IMG/VR virus record: IMGVR_UViG_2609459794_000001
Origin: a virus
Taxonomy: Duplodnaviria; Heunggongvirae; Uroviricota; Caudoviricetes
Length of the DNA stretch: 7,150 nt
Direction: 5' to 3' (one strand)
In this document: positions 326-7,150 of the stretch, in pieces
How positions within the stretch are numbered: the first letter of the stretch is position 1
Layout of the letters: each line of letters starts with the position of its first letter
The notes under the pieces: model-generated
The model's database searches: none
What the model saw: only the letters and a program-made list of their open reading frames with translations
Told to the model about the DNA's origin: nothing
Program-made: the position numbers and the translations under genes

Positions 326-734
326 GTACCGCGCTATCGACTTCATTTACGAAGGCAATCAGATAACGTGCGGCGATAAACTGGAGTCCGTGACCGGGAA
401 ATTGCAATTCGACATCAGCAGCCAGTACGACAAGCAACAGGAACATCTGCTGTTTACTCCTCTGTTCAAAGCGGATAACGCCAGAGTTTTCGACCTTGAA
501 GTTGAATCGTCAACTGGAGTTGCGCAGTATGCTGACCGCCTTTTTCTCTCTGCAACCACTGACGGCATCAATTACGGGCGTGAGCAGATGATTGAGCAGA
601 ATGAACCGTTCGTTTACGACAAACGCGTTTTGTGGAAGCGTGTCGGGCGAATAAGGAAAAATGTCGGCTTCAAATTGCGCGTTATCACTAAGTCACCTGT
701 CACTCTCTCAGGCTGCCAGATAAGGATTGAGTAA
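326..734 (+). pseudogene. C-terminal remnant of P22-like tail hub protein (gene 10 equivalent), 5' part separated by IS629 insertion
   Basis: The frame of the 390..734 track ORF (GTG at 390) stays open upstream with no stop all the way to the IS junction at 325/326, so the ORF is a fragment of a larger gene. Its stop overlaps the start of the tail needle gene (TAATG at 732..736), as gene 10 does with gene 26 in P22-like late operons. Assignment to gene 10 is by synteny; I cannot confirm it by sequence recall. Confidence 0.55.
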
Positions 735-1435
735 TGGTTGATTCATCACTGAATGATCCTGTCGTGGTTCAGGCTACGCGCCTTGATGCTTCAATTTTGC
801 CACGCAATATATTCAGCCAGTCTTACCTGCTGTATGTCATAAATCAGGGAGCTGATGTCGGCGCAATTGCCGGGAAGGCAAATCAGGCTGGTCAGGGCGC
901 TTACGATGCCCAGGTAAAAAACGATGAACAGGATGTCGAACTGGCTGATCACGACGCAAGAATCACCGCAAACACAAAAGCGATAAATCTCCTTGAGGTC
1001 AGGTTAACAACCGCCGAAGGGAAGATAGTCGTACTGCGTAGCGATGTTGATTACTTGCTGGATGAGGTTATCGATATTCAGGGGCATCTGGTCACTGTTG
1101 ACCAAAGACTGGATGACGTAGAAAACGATGTCTCTGGCATTAAGAGTGATTACGTATCGAAAACCGTAACAGAATCGCAGTCTCTTGCGTCACCGCTGGA
1201 TGTAAAAACATCATATTCAGTTGATGGAATTCAGGTTGTTGGAGCAAGAAATACCGGATGGACTGCAGCCACAGGTACACCTCTTCTTGGCTCATTCAAC
1301 GCTAACCAGTCATACACTGTCGGCACTACGTACACACAATCCGAAGTCGCAGCTATCGCTACAGGTTTGGAGCAGGCGCGGCAGCGTATTCTGGCGCTTG
1401 AAACAGCACTTAGATTACATGGGTTGATTGACTGA
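734..1435 (+). CDS. Tail needle protein (P22 gp26 family), 233 aa
   Basis: ORF of 233 aa, the same length as P22 gp26 as I recall it. The N-terminus ([35 protein letters not shown]...) resembles the conserved gp26 hub-binding domain. A heptad-like coiled-coil character runs through the middle and the protein ends ...[22 protein letters not shown] lies 7 nt upstream of the ATG. Position between the gene 10 remnant and gene 14 fits. Confidence 0.8.
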
Positions 1436-1890
1436 TGATTACATTCAAACCAACGCGAAACATCGACCTGATAGAAGCTGTCGGAAATCACCCTGACATT
1501 ATTGCCGGAAGCAACAACGGTGATGGATACGACTATAAACATGATTGCCGTTACTTTGAGGTGAACGTGCACGGGCAGTTCGGCGGCATTGTTTACTATC
1601 AGGAAATTCAGCCGCTGACATTCGATTGCCACGCCATGTACCTGCCAGAGATTCGCGGCTTCAGCAAGGAAATCGGGCTGGCGTTCTGGCGATACATTCT
1701 GACTAACACCACCGTTCAGTGCGTCACATCGTTCGCTGCACGCAAATTCCGCCACGGGCAGATGTACTGCGCAATGATTGGCCTTAAGCGTGTCGGAACC
1801 ATCAAGAAATACTTTAAAGGCGTGGATGACGTGACTTTTTACAGCGCCACACGCGAAGAACTAATCGACTTCCTGAATCACGGGAGATAG
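1435..1890 (+). CDS. P22 gp14-like virion assembly/ejection-associated protein, 151 aa
   Basis: ORF whose start overlaps the tail needle stop (TGATG at 1433..1437), indicating translational coupling. It occupies the gene 14 position between the needle gene and the gp7-like gene. Assignment is by synteny only. Confidence 0.6.
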   Translation: MITFKPTRNIDLIEAVGNHPDIIAGSNNGDGYDYKHDCRYFEVNVHGQFGGIVYYQEIQPLTFDCHAMYLPEIRGFSKEIGLAFWRYILTNTTVQCVTSFAARKFRHGQMYCAMIGLKRVGTIKKYFKGVDDVTFYSATREELIDFLNHGR

Positions 1891-1892
1891 CC

Positions 1893-2585
1893 ATGTTATA
1901 TGCATTTAAGCTGGGCAGAAAACTGCGCGGCGAGGAACCTTATTGCCCTGAAAAAGGCGGGAAAGGTGGTAGCTCTGATAAAAGCGCAAAGTATGCCGCA
2001 GAAGCTCAGAAGTATGCCGCAGACCTGCAAAATCAGCAGTTCAACACCATCATGAACAACCTGAAGCCGTTTACTCCTCTGGCTGATAAGTATGTCGGCA
2101 GCCTCGAGAACTTATCGTCTCTGGAAGGGCAAGGTCAGGCACTTAACCAGTATTACAACTCTCAGCAGTACAAAGATCTTGCTGGTCAGGCTCGCTATCA
2201 GAGTCTGGCTGCAGCGGAAGCAACAGGTGGATTGGGTTCCACTGCAACCGGTAATCAGTTAGCAACAATCGCACCAACGCTTGGTCAGCAGTGGCTGTCT
2301 GGTCAGATGAACAACTACCAGAATCTGGCAAACGTTGGGCTTGGTGCTCTGCAAGGTCAGGCAAACGCAGGGCAGACATATGCCAACAACATGAGTCAGA
2401 TTTCGCAGCAAAGTGCGGCTCTTGCAGCGGCAAATGCCAACAGACCATCAGCAATGCAATCTGCTATTGGCGGAGGTGCGTCTGGTGCTATTGCTGGGGC
2501 CGGACTTGCGAAATTAATTGGTTCATCAACTCCGTGGGGGGCTGCGATCGGCGGCGGTCTTGGTCTGCTTGGCTCGTTGTTTTAA
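1893..2585 (+). CDS. Ejection (DNA transfer) protein, P22 gp7 family, 230 aa
   Basis: N-terminus MLYAFKLGRKLRGEEPYCPEKGGKGG, a Q/N/A-rich middle and a Gly/Ala-rich hydrophobic C-terminus (...GGGASGAIAGAGLAKLIGSSTPWGAAIGGGLGLLGSLF) match my recollection of P22 gp7. Length is within one residue of P22 gp7 as I remember it (229 aa). SD GGGAGA lies 5 nt upstream of the ATG. Confidence 0.8.
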   Translation: MLYAFKLGRKLRGEEPYCPEKGGKGGSSDKSAKYAAEAQKYAADLQNQQFNTIMNNLKPFTPLADKYVGSLENLSSLEGQGQALNQYYNSQQYKDLAGQARYQSLAAAEATGGLGSTATGNQLATIAPTLGQQWLSGQMNNYQNLANVGLGALQGQANAGQTYANNMSQISQQSAALAAANANRPSAMQSAIGGGASGAIAGAGLAKLIGSSTPWGAAIGGGLGLLGSLF

Positions 2586-2595
2586 GGGGTAATCA

Positions 2596-3975
2596 ATGGC
2601 TACGTGGCAACAGGGTATTAATTCTGGTGGTTTTCTGGCTGGCATCGGTACGCAAAATGAGAATGCGCCAAAGGCAAGCGACATTAACGCAACGCTTGGT
2701 CTGATCCGCGAAAACAATGAACTGGCTCGCTCAGGTGTAAATAACGTTGGCCTGACCGCGTTACGTGGTCTGGCTGGAGTTGCTGATATTTACAATCAGG
2801 AACAGCAACAGAAAGCTATTAGTGAGTTCAATAAGGTTCACGCTGATGCATGGGCTTCTGGTGATCCATCGGGACTATTTAAGTTTGCCCAGGAAAATCC
2901 AGCGTTTGTTGCACAGGCACAACAGGCGTTTTCCGGTCTTAATGATCAGCAACGCAACGATATGGGCGATTTAGCCATGAGGGCTAACGTCGCTCTTTCT
3001 CAGGGGCCGGAAGCCTACAGTAAATTCATTACTGACAACAAGGACAGGTTAAATCGCGTTGGGGCTAATGCTGACTGGATGATTCAGACAGGTATCCAGA
3101 ATCCAGAGCAGCTATCACACATGCTGACTACTATGTCTCTCGGTGCACTTGGGCCAGAAAAGGCGTTTGCTGTTCAGGACAAGATGGCTGGTCGTGAAAT
3201 TGACAGAGGCAGGCTGGCAGAGACAATCCGCAGCAATCAGGCTGGCGAGGCGCTAACAGCACGTGGTCAGAATATCACGATGCGCGGTCAGGATTTATCG
3301 ATGCAGAGAGCATCAATGAAAGGGTCGGTTGGGAATAATGAGCGTACAGTTCAGTTAGCAGATGGCAGAACTGTAACGGTAGGCGGGAAGCTTCACGGCG
3401 CTGGGGCTAATGCGTTCTACGAAGGTATCGACAACGAGGGGAATATGGTTCGCGTCCCTGCTGGCTCTATTGCCGCTCCGGCTACATCGGCAGCAAGCGC
3501 GCAGAATTACGCAATGAAGAAAGATCTTGATGCAATTTCTGGTGCATCAATTGACGATCTTGGCTTCATGACTGGCATTACAGGCTCTTCAGGTTCTCCT
3601 GCTCTTGGTGCAGATATTCGTAGCCGTGCATCTGGTGGTGATCAGAGGAAACTATACAACGCTGCACAGCGAATCCAAGGAAAGATGCAGAATCAGGGCA
3701 TTGCAGCAGCCAGAGACATGGGGGCATCCGGTATCAACACCGTTGCAGAAGCAAAGATGTATTTTCAAGGTATGCCACAGGTTGATTTCTCAAGCCCTGA
3801 AGCACTGCAACAATCAATGCGCGACATTCAGCAATATACCGACAATTACAACCAGCAATATAACGTTAATGTCGGTAATGGAGGGAAGAAATCATCAATG
3901 CAACAGCCGCCTACTCAGCAATCAGCAGGAGGTAGCTACACGTCAAAATCAGGCATTCAATTTACGGTGGAATGA
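2596..3975 (+). CDS. Ejection (DNA transfer) protein, P22 gp20 family, 459 aa
   Basis: N-terminus [22 protein letters not shown]... and the size (459 aa; P22 gp20 is about 470 aa as I recall) fit gp20. SD AAGGGG lies 6 nt upstream of the ATG. It follows the gp7-like gene and overlaps the gp16-like gene start. Confidence 0.8.
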
Positions 3976-5813
3976 TGAAAGTAACTGCAAACGGTAAGAC
4001 ATTTACCTTCCCTGATGGTACGAGCACGGAAGATATTGGCACCGCCATTGATGAGTATTTTGCTGGTCAGGCTGTTCAGCAACAAACAGTTAATCAGGCC
4101 AATAATGAACCAGCACGTGAAGAACCATCATTGATGCAACAAGCTGGCGATTGGCTCACTGGTGGTCAAAGTGCAGGGCAAATTGCAGAACAGGCTGGTC
4201 GTGGTCTGGTAAACATACCATTTGACGTATTGCAGGGTGGCGCAAGTCTGATTAATGCAATCAGTCAGGGGCTTGGTGGGCCAAAAGTATTGGATGATGT
4301 TTATCGTCCAGTAGACAGACCGACAGACCCCTACGCACAAGCAGGTGAAACAATTGGTGGGTATTTAGTTCCAGGAGTTGGAACGGCAGGAAGCATGGCT
4401 ATTGGATCACTGGCAGAGGCCGCAAATCAGAAAGGCGATTTCGCACAAAATGCAGCTAAAAATGCCGGAGTTAACCTTGCCGCTCAGGGTGTTCTTTCCG
4501 CAGCAGCAAAGGGAATAGGGCGTGGAATAACGGCTATAAAAGGTGATATTGCGCCAGAAGTGGCGAAGAAAATTGCCACATCAGAATCGATGGGCGTGAC
4601 ACCAATGACATCTGATGTTATCCCGCCGAAAAATGCTTTCACTCGCGGCCTTACTCAGGATGCCGAGGGGGCTTTGCTCGGAACAGGCTCAAAGAGAGCG
4701 GAGCAATATGCAACGCGTAGTAAGCTGGTAAGCAATTATTTTGACCGTTTTGGTGAGTACAACCCTGATGATGTGGTGAAATCTCTGACCACCACGTTAA
4801 GGGGGCGGAAGGATGCCGCTGGCGCTGTTATCAATGACGTCACCAATAAAATGGGTAATGCCGCAGTTGATACCACAAATACCATGAATGCTCTGAATAC
4901 AGCGATCGCAAGACAGGAACGACTTGGGACGTCTGCCAATCAAAGCCTGCTTACATCCTTGCGTAACCTACGTGAAGAATTAGCAAACCCTGCAACTGAT
5001 TTGGATGTTACGTTTGATCTCTTGCGTCAGCACAGAACAGCATTTAGATCTAATGTTCAGGGAGATGCTATGGTCTTCCCCAACCAGGCAAAAGCAGCTA
5101 CCAATATGGTAGAGAATGCAATGTCAAAAGACCTTCGTAACGCAGTTGCAAAAAACCTCGGTGCATCAGACGCAGCAAAATACCTTAAAGCAAATTCTGA
5201 TTATGCAAACGTTTATAATAAGGTGCTTAATAAAAACATTGCTAACAAACTCAACAAGGCAAGCAGTGAAGCCAGCCCTGAACTTATAAATACCGTTGTA
5301 TTAAGCAGAAAACCATCTGACGTGAAACGAATATGGAGCGCGCTGGATGATAAGGGGAAAGATGCTATGCGTGCAGCTTACGTCAGCAAAATAGCGGAAA
5401 AGGCCGGGGACTCTCCAGCCAAGTTCATCACTGAAGTTAATAAGCTGAAATCTCAGTCAGGCGGTGAAATTTACAACACTATTTTTTCTGGAAAGCACAT
5501 GAAAGAGCTTGATGCTCTTCATGAAGTTCTACAGCAAACAGCAAGGTCAGACACCGCAAATGTAGTAACTCAGACGGGGCAATCGCAAGCCAACAGGATA
5601 AGGACGATTGGCGCAACTGCGACCCTTGGCGTATCAATGGGGCTTGAGGCTGGTTTTGGTGCAATGATGCGCTTGTATGAGTCCAAAGCAGCAAGGAATG
5701 CTCTCTTACGTCTGGCAAACACTAAAGCTGGAACGCCAGCTTATGAAAGAGCGCTAAATCAGGCTGCTACTGCCGTGCGCCCGCTCTTAGCTAACGAAGC
5801 GACCCGGCAGTAG
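3972..5813 (+). CDS. Ejection (DNA transfer) protein, P22 gp16 family, about 612 aa
   Basis: N-terminus (M)[31 protein letters not shown]... and the size (P22 gp16 is about 609 aa as I recall) fit gp16. There are tandem ATG codons at 3972 and 3975; the first overlaps the gp20 stop (ATGA). A GGTGG SD-like motif ends at 3970, which favours the second ATG (3975) as the true start. Confidence 0.8.
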
Positions 5814-5835
5814 CACTGTAAGCCAAGGACGGCAT

Positions 5836-6330
5836 TTATTTTATAGTTTTTATGAATTCTTTATTAAATCCCTTAGCTTCTCCGGGGTATCTTCCAAAGA
5901 CAATTTTTATAAAAACAGAAAAAATAAAGATAGCAACGCTTAACAACAGTTGCAGTATCATTGGAACCCAAAGAACTACAGGCTCTATATTCATGAAACC
6001 AAATATTCTTCCGGCGATCATGGCGAAGTACCACACTGTTATCAGCAAACTTAGTGGCATATGAATTACTGATATTACCAATCCAAGAGCATCAGTAATT
6101 CTATTTTCAAATTTTTCAGGAGAAAACTTTTCTTTAAGGTAATTCAGTGCGCAGGCCTCATTCTCTGGATTTTCAGCATTTTTCCCTATAGCAATAGAAA
6201 TCTCAGATATCCTTGATTCAATTCTTTTGCGTTTAATAAAACTAGAAAAAAAGAACCACGCAATCTGCAACCCTATCCCCATAAATAGAGTTGCGGCAAC
6301 TAGCACAGCGTAACTCATAGAATCAGACAC
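5836..6330 (-). CDS. Small inner-membrane protein with three predicted transmembrane helices; candidate SieA-type superinfection exclusion protein (by position)
   Basis: Minus-strand ORF in a strongly AT-rich segment. Three long hydrophobic stretches are visible ([25 protein letters not shown]; [26 protein letters not shown]; [28 protein letters not shown]) separated by charged loops. It is convergent with gene 16, 22 bp away, at the locus where P22 carries sieA. Start is uncertain: GTG at 6330 has AGAGG 5 nt upstream (preferred), ATG at 6318 has no well-spaced SD, and the track's longest version starts at GTG 6402. Confidence 0.6.
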
Positions 6331-6518
6331 ACCAACCTCTTTAGTTTTTCTAGTTACTTTGTCACGATAGGATATGCGAATTGATAAAACTAAATTGCGC
6401 ACATGATAACTCAGTAATAATTGTTAATGAAAACATGATCACCTATATTGCACAAGGCGAAACAGGAAGCATAATCTGGTTTCATGAGTGTGATCACGTT
6501 TGGGTAAATCAAAGTCAA

Positions 6519-6541
6519 GGTGATGCTGCCAACTTACTGAT
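6519..6541 (+). repeat. IS1 left terminal inverted repeat (IRL)
   Basis: Direct read of GGTGATGCTGCCAACTTACTGAT at the start of the IS1 copy. Confidence 0.85.
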
Positions 6542-6573
6542 TTAGTGTATGATGGTGTTTTTGAGGTGCTCCA

Positions 6574-6849
6574 GTGGCTTCTGTTTCTATCAGCTGTCCC
6601 TCCTGTTCAGCTACTGACGGGGTGGTGCGTAACGGCAAAAGCACTGCCGGACATCAGCGCTATCTCTGCTCTCACTGCCGTAAAACATGGCAACTGCAGT
6701 TCACTTACACCGCTTCTCAACCCGGTACGCACCAGAAAATCATTGATATGGCCATGAATGGCGTTGGATGCCGGGCAACTGCCCGCATTATGGGCGTTGG
6801 CCTCAACACGGTTTTACGTCACTTAAAAAACTCAGTCCGCAGTCGGTAA
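6574..6849 (+). CDS. insA: IS1 InsA (transposition inhibitor / N-terminal part of InsAB' transposase), 91 aa
   Basis: GTG-initiated ORF giving [91 protein letters not shown]. This matches IS1 InsA, including the zinc-finger Cys pairs and helix-turn-helix, with a few substitutions relative to the canonical sequence as I recall it. Confidence 0.92.
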
Positions 6850-7150
6850 CCTCGCGCATACAACCGGGCAGTGATGTGATTGTCTGCGCTGAAATGGACG
6901 AACAGTGGGGCTACGTCGGTGCTAAATCACGTCAGCGCTGGCTGTTTTACGCGTATGACAGGATACGGAGGACAGTTGTGGCGCACGTTTTCGGTGAACG
7001 CACTCTGGCCACACTGGCGCGTCTTCTGAGCCTGCTGTCGGCCTTTGAGGTCGTGGTATGGATGACGGATGGCTGGCCGCTGTATGAATCACGCCTGAAG
7101 GGAAAGCTGCACGTTATCAGCAAGCGTTACACTCAGCGCATTGAGCGACA
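6768..7150 (+). CDS. insB: IS1 InsB reading frame (C-terminal catalytic part of InsAB' transposase), truncated by window end
   Basis: Manual translation of the -1 frame from ATG 6768 gives [64 protein letters not shown]..., matching IS1 InsB. The frame is open to the window end. Not in the ORF track because no stop is reached. Confidence 0.88.
6825..6831 (+). promoter_or_regulatory. IS1 A6C programmed -1 ribosomal frameshift motif (insA to insB fusion site)
   Basis: AAAAAAC read directly at 6825..6831 within TTAAAAAACTC near the end of insA. In IS1 this slippery run is the established site of the -1 frameshift that produces InsAB' transposase. Confidence 0.75.

Follow-up and report, generated by a model that had tools for sequence, protein, structure and literature searches.

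The locus analysed here raises the question of what an insertion sequence has done to the phage DNA beside it: whether it has removed the genes expected at this position, and whether it has changed the expression of the membrane protein gene next to which it stands. In the initial annotation, an IS1 end was recognized about 190 bp upstream of that gene, in the place of the immI and tailspike genes of P22-like genomes, and it was suggested that the insertion may have deleted phage DNA and may alter expression of the membrane gene. The window, i.e. the whole stretch of DNA that was analysed, is the entire 7150-bp contig JNMG01000083.1 from the draft assembly GCA_000700225.1 of E. coli 3-373-03_S3_C1. 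It consists of three blocks, namely the end of an IS3-family element (positions 1–325), a P22-like late region (326–6518) and an IS1 copy (6519–7150). Both contig ends thus lie inside repeated IS copies, with 325 bp of the IS3-family element on the left and 632 bp of IS1 on the right.

The left block (minus strand) is an IS end with the 5' part of orfA (1–271). Many E. coli genomes have copies annotated 'IS3 family transposase' that agree with it at 100% of its 325 bp, and it matches NF033516 (E = 6e-10); we take it to be of the IS629/IS1203 type. Matches to IS-free prophages begin at position 326, where the 3' remnant of a homologue of P22 gene 10 (packaged-DNA stabilisation protein) is found on the plus strand (326–734; PF11134). 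Only the last 114 codons are left of this gene, which is intact in relatives and there codes for a 472 aa protein. It is followed on the same strand by the homologues of genes 26 (734–1435), 14 (1435–1890), 7 (1893–2585), 20 (2596–3975) and 16 (3972–5813), all assigned on the basis of Pfam matches and synteny. The late-region segment displays 95–96% DNA identity to E. coli chromosomal prophages and ~84% identity to P22. Because the IS3-family element sits inside the essential gene 10, the prophage is defective whatever lies beyond the IS1.

A Logan contig (L025) with a 114-aa truncated gp10 ORF was considered as a second carrier of the IS junction. It was rejected, since its first 27 positions (1–27) are a Nextera transposase adapter, AGATGTGTATAAGAGACAG, which an assembly artefact has joined to gene 10 and which thereby imitates the truncated ORF. 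As a separate observation, E. coli strain 504239 has the same IS3-family end (NZ_CP025859.1, ~1300186–1300510) beside a gene with the annotation 'phage DNA ejection protein'; this site may be another IS-disrupted P22-like prophage.

The membrane gene at the other side of the late region proved to be sieA, which codes for a type A superinfection exclusion protein of 164 aa (5836–6330, minus strand), and the IS1 does lie upstream of it. When translated from the GTG at 6330, the protein shares 151 of its 164 residues with P22 SieA (92%, no gaps; BLASTP, E = 5e-114), and it matches phrog_7745, 'superinfection exclusion SieA-like' (E = 9e-109). Near its C-terminus it possesses the 13-residue sequence FxRYPxEAxxFNK, a conserved cytoplasmic motif of SieA proteins (PMC10883804). 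The SIEA family, which is present in a precomputed Pfam table, was not returned by the Pfam scan, nor was any SIEA match obtained in the NCBIfam search; the identity of the gene is settled by the PHROGs and BLASTP results. As in P22, sieA adjoins the gene 16 homologue, which is on the opposite strand; the gene 9 side is cut by the IS1 and the contig end.

The ribosome binding site AAAGAGG precedes the GTG at 6330 by 5 nt, and the whole RBS/start region, AAAGAGGTTGGTGTG, is common to P22. DNA homology to P22 ends 18 nt upstream of this GTG, a limit that marks a mosaic boundary just ahead of sieA. An alternative start, the GTG at 6402, gives a form of 188 codons (567-nt CDS), which is annotated in RefSeq relatives and is also the one called on JNMG01000083.1. 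RefSeq records differ on the length of SieA, with 188 aa in some and 164 aa in others, and the P22 literature gives 162 or 164 residues. The 188-codon form is probably too long, to judge from its sequence, since it extends into spacer DNA that is non-homologous to P22. The choice of start determines the distance of the IS1 from the gene, which is 188 bp with the GTG at 6330 and 116 bp with the start at 6402; the initial figure of about 190 bp therefore holds if the P22-type GTG 6330 is used.

The right block (6519–7150, plus strand) is the first 632 of the 768 bp of an IS1 of the IS1X2 type. Its first bases, GGTGATGCTGCCAACTTACTGAT (6519–6541, plus strand), read directly from the window, are the IS1 left terminal inverted repeat (IRL); in an alignment with an IS1B copy annotated on plasmid pMCR-SCNJ07, they agree at every base. 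Over the full 632 bp, the block is 99.7–99.8% identical to E. coli copies annotated 'IS1-like element IS1X2 family transposase'. InsA (6574–6849) matches NCBIfam NF033558, 'IS1 family transposase' (E = 1e-25), and the InsB frame, which runs to the contig end (6768–7150), matches the same family (E = 5e-35), with PF03400 found on the InsB part. The A6C frameshift motif AAAAAAC is located at 6825–6831, and insB' follows insA in the -1 frame. A consensus promoter scan returned the promoter-like CTGCCA-16-TATGAT at 6526–6553 on the plus strand, which fits the known insA promoter in IRL. The transposase genes are oriented away from sieA and from the phage DNA.

The terminal repeat, insA, the A6C motif and the insB' frame are all as in the IS1X2 isoform of E. 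coli and Shigella IS1, and this copy stands apart from known ones solely by where it is inserted; the window stops short of the last 136 bp, of the right repeat and of the target duplication. Some plasmid matches seemed to extend 18 nt past the IS1 into the phage DNA. On alignment, this turned out to be a chance similarity of the flanks (13/18).

An IS1 end is thus present at the position where it had been reported, and the phage/IS1 boundary at 6518/6519 is a genuine transposition junction at the exact terminus of IS1, not a chance match. The source is a 2014-era short-read draft and the contig terminates in repeats, which could suggest that the join of phage and IS1 DNA is an artefact of draft assembly. 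However, the IS1 DNA at the join begins with the very first base of its canonical inverted repeat. This is predicted by transposition and not by random misjoining, and we regard the probability of an assembly chimera as very low. IS1 makes a 9-bp target duplication; from this and from the position of the junction, the target is presumed to be CAAAGTCAA (6510–6518, no strand assigned).

The DNA between the sieA start and the IS1 (6331–6518, minus strand) is the native upstream spacer of sieA, with the hexamers TTGACT and TATCAT, and is conserved in IS-free relatives. Of 5426 complete E. coli genomes, only 21 contain it, each time with 97–100% identity, and it was absent from the sequenced phage records searched; from 6349 to 6518 it is non-homologous to the PsieA region of P22. 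Over the 49 bases that lead up to the junction (6470–6518), 22 IS-free loci, taken from E. coli genomes and metagenomes, have exactly the sequence of the window. Past 6518, the IS-free loci continue with GAGGAAATACTTG..., and the stop codon of a gene termed orf193 is reached 29 nt later. The insertion point is intergenic, between the orf193 stop, which it follows by 29 nt, and the sieA start, which lies 188 nt away.

The gene order beyond the junction in the IS-free loci is a minus-strand gene of 193 codons (orf193), then mnt, arc, ant and a variable tailspike gene. The expectation that immI and the tailspike gene come next is therefore borne out in the IS-free E. coli relatives, where orf193 precedes them. 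This gene (phrog_23516) has no Pfam or NCBIfam match. In the E. coli lineage it overlaps the end of mnt by 4 nt (14223–15055 in the IS-free locus L001) and is likely co-transcribed with it from Pmnt.

Compared with P22 (16, sieA, orf59a, mnt, arc, ant, 9), the order on the gene 16 side is the same here, as are the RBS and the GTG start of SieA, whereas the E. coli lineage has orf193, overlapping mnt, in place of the PsieA region, orf59a and the mnt terminator. This contig differs in turn from its IS-free relatives in that the spacer is interrupted by IS1. A canonical terminator was looked for between orf193 and sieA in the IS-free relatives and none was found. The spacer also contains two TGATCAC heptamers (6436–6442 and 6491–6497), 55 bp apart, each with a palindrome and a Dam GATC site. 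This pair was tried as a terminator, given that it could form an 11-bp RNA stem followed by the U-run UUUUCAUU, and was rejected, as the structure is no stabler than those of shuffled sequences (z = −1.3).

Are the missing genes deleted? Short-read assemblers stop in repeated IS copies, and a contig that ends in IS1 is the expected outcome for any IS copy. The immI and tailspike genes are missing from the window through the contig boundary, and this is not evidence of deletion: because the contig terminates in a repeat, their absence carries no weight for it. The methodological lesson is that, where a whole short-read contig has IS ends, the absence of expected neighbours says nothing on deletion; from JNMG01000083.1, nothing can be inferred on what flanks either the IS3-family element or the IS1.

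Two arrangements of the far side have to be weighed. We give an even chance to a simple insertion, in which the right end of IS1 would be followed immediately, on another contig of the assembly, by orf193, mnt, arc, ant and the tailspike gene. Such an insertion predicts that the right end of the element (…AAGTTGGAGTCATTACC) is followed by CAAAGTCAA-GAGGAAATACTTGAAATT, i.e. by the 9-bp duplication. Most E. coli IS1 copies keep their target duplications, and the junction coincides exactly with the IS1 terminus, at a site that is intergenic and AT-rich; the end of the contig within IS1, an ordinary short-read result, fits this arrangement as well. However, the window does not extend to the far side, and none of the collections searched yielded the junction. 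Somewhat less probable than an even chance, in our estimate, is an adjacent deletion of the kind that IS1 makes, or recombination between IS1 copies, by which immI and the tailspike gene would be gone or moved and a 6.2-kb phage remnant would be left between two IS elements. In favour of such an event, the prophage was already decaying, with an IS3-family element inside the essential gene 10, and for some E. coli chromosomes a single record contains at least 40 matches to this type of IS1, a copy number that favours IS–IS recombination. Yet nothing in the window separates a deletion from a simple insertion, and the absence of genes at a contig end is, again, without weight.

The searches for the junction were as follows. 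Megablast of 6330–6710 against the 5426 complete E. coli genomes gave no match spanning the junction. The exact 38-nt junction pattern was absent from the GTDB representative genomes and the JGI metagenomes, and the plasmid collection yielded no junction, only IS1 copies and one IS-free prophage match. Exact look-up of the 54-aa ORF that spans the junction gave no match, and exact look-ups of the SieA and gp16 proteins returned IS-free loci only. The truncated gp10 ORF led back to JNMG01000083.1 itself, and a search of the literature with the accession gave no result.

The second part of the question concerns the expression of sieA. P22 sieA with 85 bp of upstream DNA and HS1 sieA with 106 bp each confer full exclusion from a chromosomal single copy (PMC10883804). 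Since the 188 nt of native upstream DNA retained here exceed the lengths sufficient for these two other sieA genes, sieA is probably still expressed. By the same analogy, it probably has its own proximal promoter. In P22, the annotated PsieA lies 31–61 nt upstream of the sieA start, and a terminator follows orf59a. The argument for a proximal promoter is one of position and not of sequence, because the spacer from 6349 to 6518 lacks homology to the P22 PsieA region. The best -10-like hexamer in the spacer is TATCAT (reverse complement of 6403–6408), which is accompanied by weak -35 candidates.

As the relatives showed no canonical terminator between orf193 and sieA, read-through from Pmnt may normally contribute part of the sieA transcription. 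IS1 is known to be polar, and the insertion would remove such a contribution. As far as can be judged from sequence, the insertion site itself is without detectable regulatory consequence.

The initial annotation had also drawn attention to a TTGACT hexamer at the junction on the minus strand. Its placement was correct: TTGACT is the reverse complement of 6513–6518, abuts the IS1 and has 5 of the 6 consensus bases of a -35. It does not, however, owe any significance to the junction. The hexamer belongs to the 49 bases that are identical in the 22 IS-free loci, and it is therefore ancestral and unchanged, not made by the junction; no usable -10 accompanies it, and no promoter site was called there. 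Its best -10 partners at 17–19 nt are GATCAC (3/6) and TCACAC (2/6), both without T at position 6.

The IS1 itself offers a further candidate, the outward-facing TTGGCA (6532–6527). It, too, has 5 of the 6 consensus -35 bases, and it faces sieA at a distance of 8 nt from the tip of the element. IS1 ends are said to form hybrid promoters, reportedly in work by Prentki et al. 1986, and the likeness to such promoters consists in this outward -35-like hexamer near the tip, directed at the neighbouring gene. However, the defining -10 in the flanking DNA at 16–18 nt is missing here, as the only partners at that spacing are GATTTA, ATTTAC and TTTACC, with 2–3 matches out of 6 and without T6. The consensus scan called no minus-strand promoter at the junction or in 6331–6518, and no pair of hexamers reached the threshold.

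A role of the junction in driving or altering sieA transcription, with TTGACT or the TTGGCA of IS1 as the -35 of a hybrid promoter, thus has two good -35 matches in its favour, one abutting the IS1 and the other close to its tip. Against it stand the ancestral nature of TTGACT, the poor quality of the best -10s (GATCAC, TCACAC and TTTACC, at 2–3/6 and without T6), the lack of any minus-strand site in the scan and the distance of any such transcription start from the start codon, ~150 nt or more. With no acceptable -10 and no minus-strand site called, a hybrid or junction promoter appears unlikely from the sequence, and we lend very little credence to an effect of the junction on sieA of this kind.

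The explanation that we consider highly probable for the locus as a whole joins an insertion of IS1X2-type IS1 into the spacer, a defective prophage, an absence of immI and tailspike that is due to the contig end, and a sieA gene that is likely expressed. The IS1 transposed into the sieA upstream spacer of a P22-like E. coli prophage and would cut sieA off from transcription that may reach it from Pmnt by read-through of mnt and orf193. The gene would most likely still be expressed at a low constitutive level from its own proximal promoter, putatively near TATCAT (6408–6403), and the strain would then keep the predicted SieA-type exclusion of incoming P22-like phages. With a sieA gene that probably still works, the strain could resist P22-like coliphages though its prophage is dead.

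All of the parts are of known kinds (a P22-like late region, a type A sieA, an IS3-family element and an IS1X2-type IS1), and the locus is an ordinary one, a P22-like prophage in a draft E. coli genome that is defective and has received yet another copy of IS1. Its only particular feature is the site of the IS1 insertion. Conceivably, the IS1 was kept for an effect on sieA, by uncoupling the gene from the immI (Pmnt) unit or by changing its expression in some other way, leaving a stand-alone exclusion gene in a decaying, IS-bounded remnant. If true, a phage defence gene would here have been domesticated, on a small scale, with the help of an IS; we give this reading a shade less credence even than the hybrid promoter.

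Some further open reading frames and prophages were encountered in the course of the comparison. In P22 (BK000583, 11041–11418, plus strand), a 125-codon ORF that is unannotated in the record lies between sieA and orf59a, divergent from sieA; it matches phrog_1365 (E = 8e-40) and contains a HECAH (HExxH-like) motif. In the IS-free relatives, a plus-strand ORF of 69 codons is present (L001, 14056–14265), which the IS1 cuts to a 54-codon hybrid in the window (6381–6545). This junction ORF has HECDH at about the place of the motif in the P22 ORF. It was considered as a relative of the P22 HExxH ORF and was rejected, as the similarity is not significant (E = 0.19) and it has no PHROG or Pfam match; the plus-strand ORF at 6381–6545 is probably not a gene. 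Finally, several E. coli genomes (L003, L007, L011, L013 and L020) carry a prophage at bioA/ybhB in which a 525-aa product combining Phage_lysis and Inj_translocase (gene 20) domains is encoded beside replication genes. These prophages look like a shared deletion derivative in which the head genes have all been lost and gene 16, sieA, immI and the tailspike gene have been kept.
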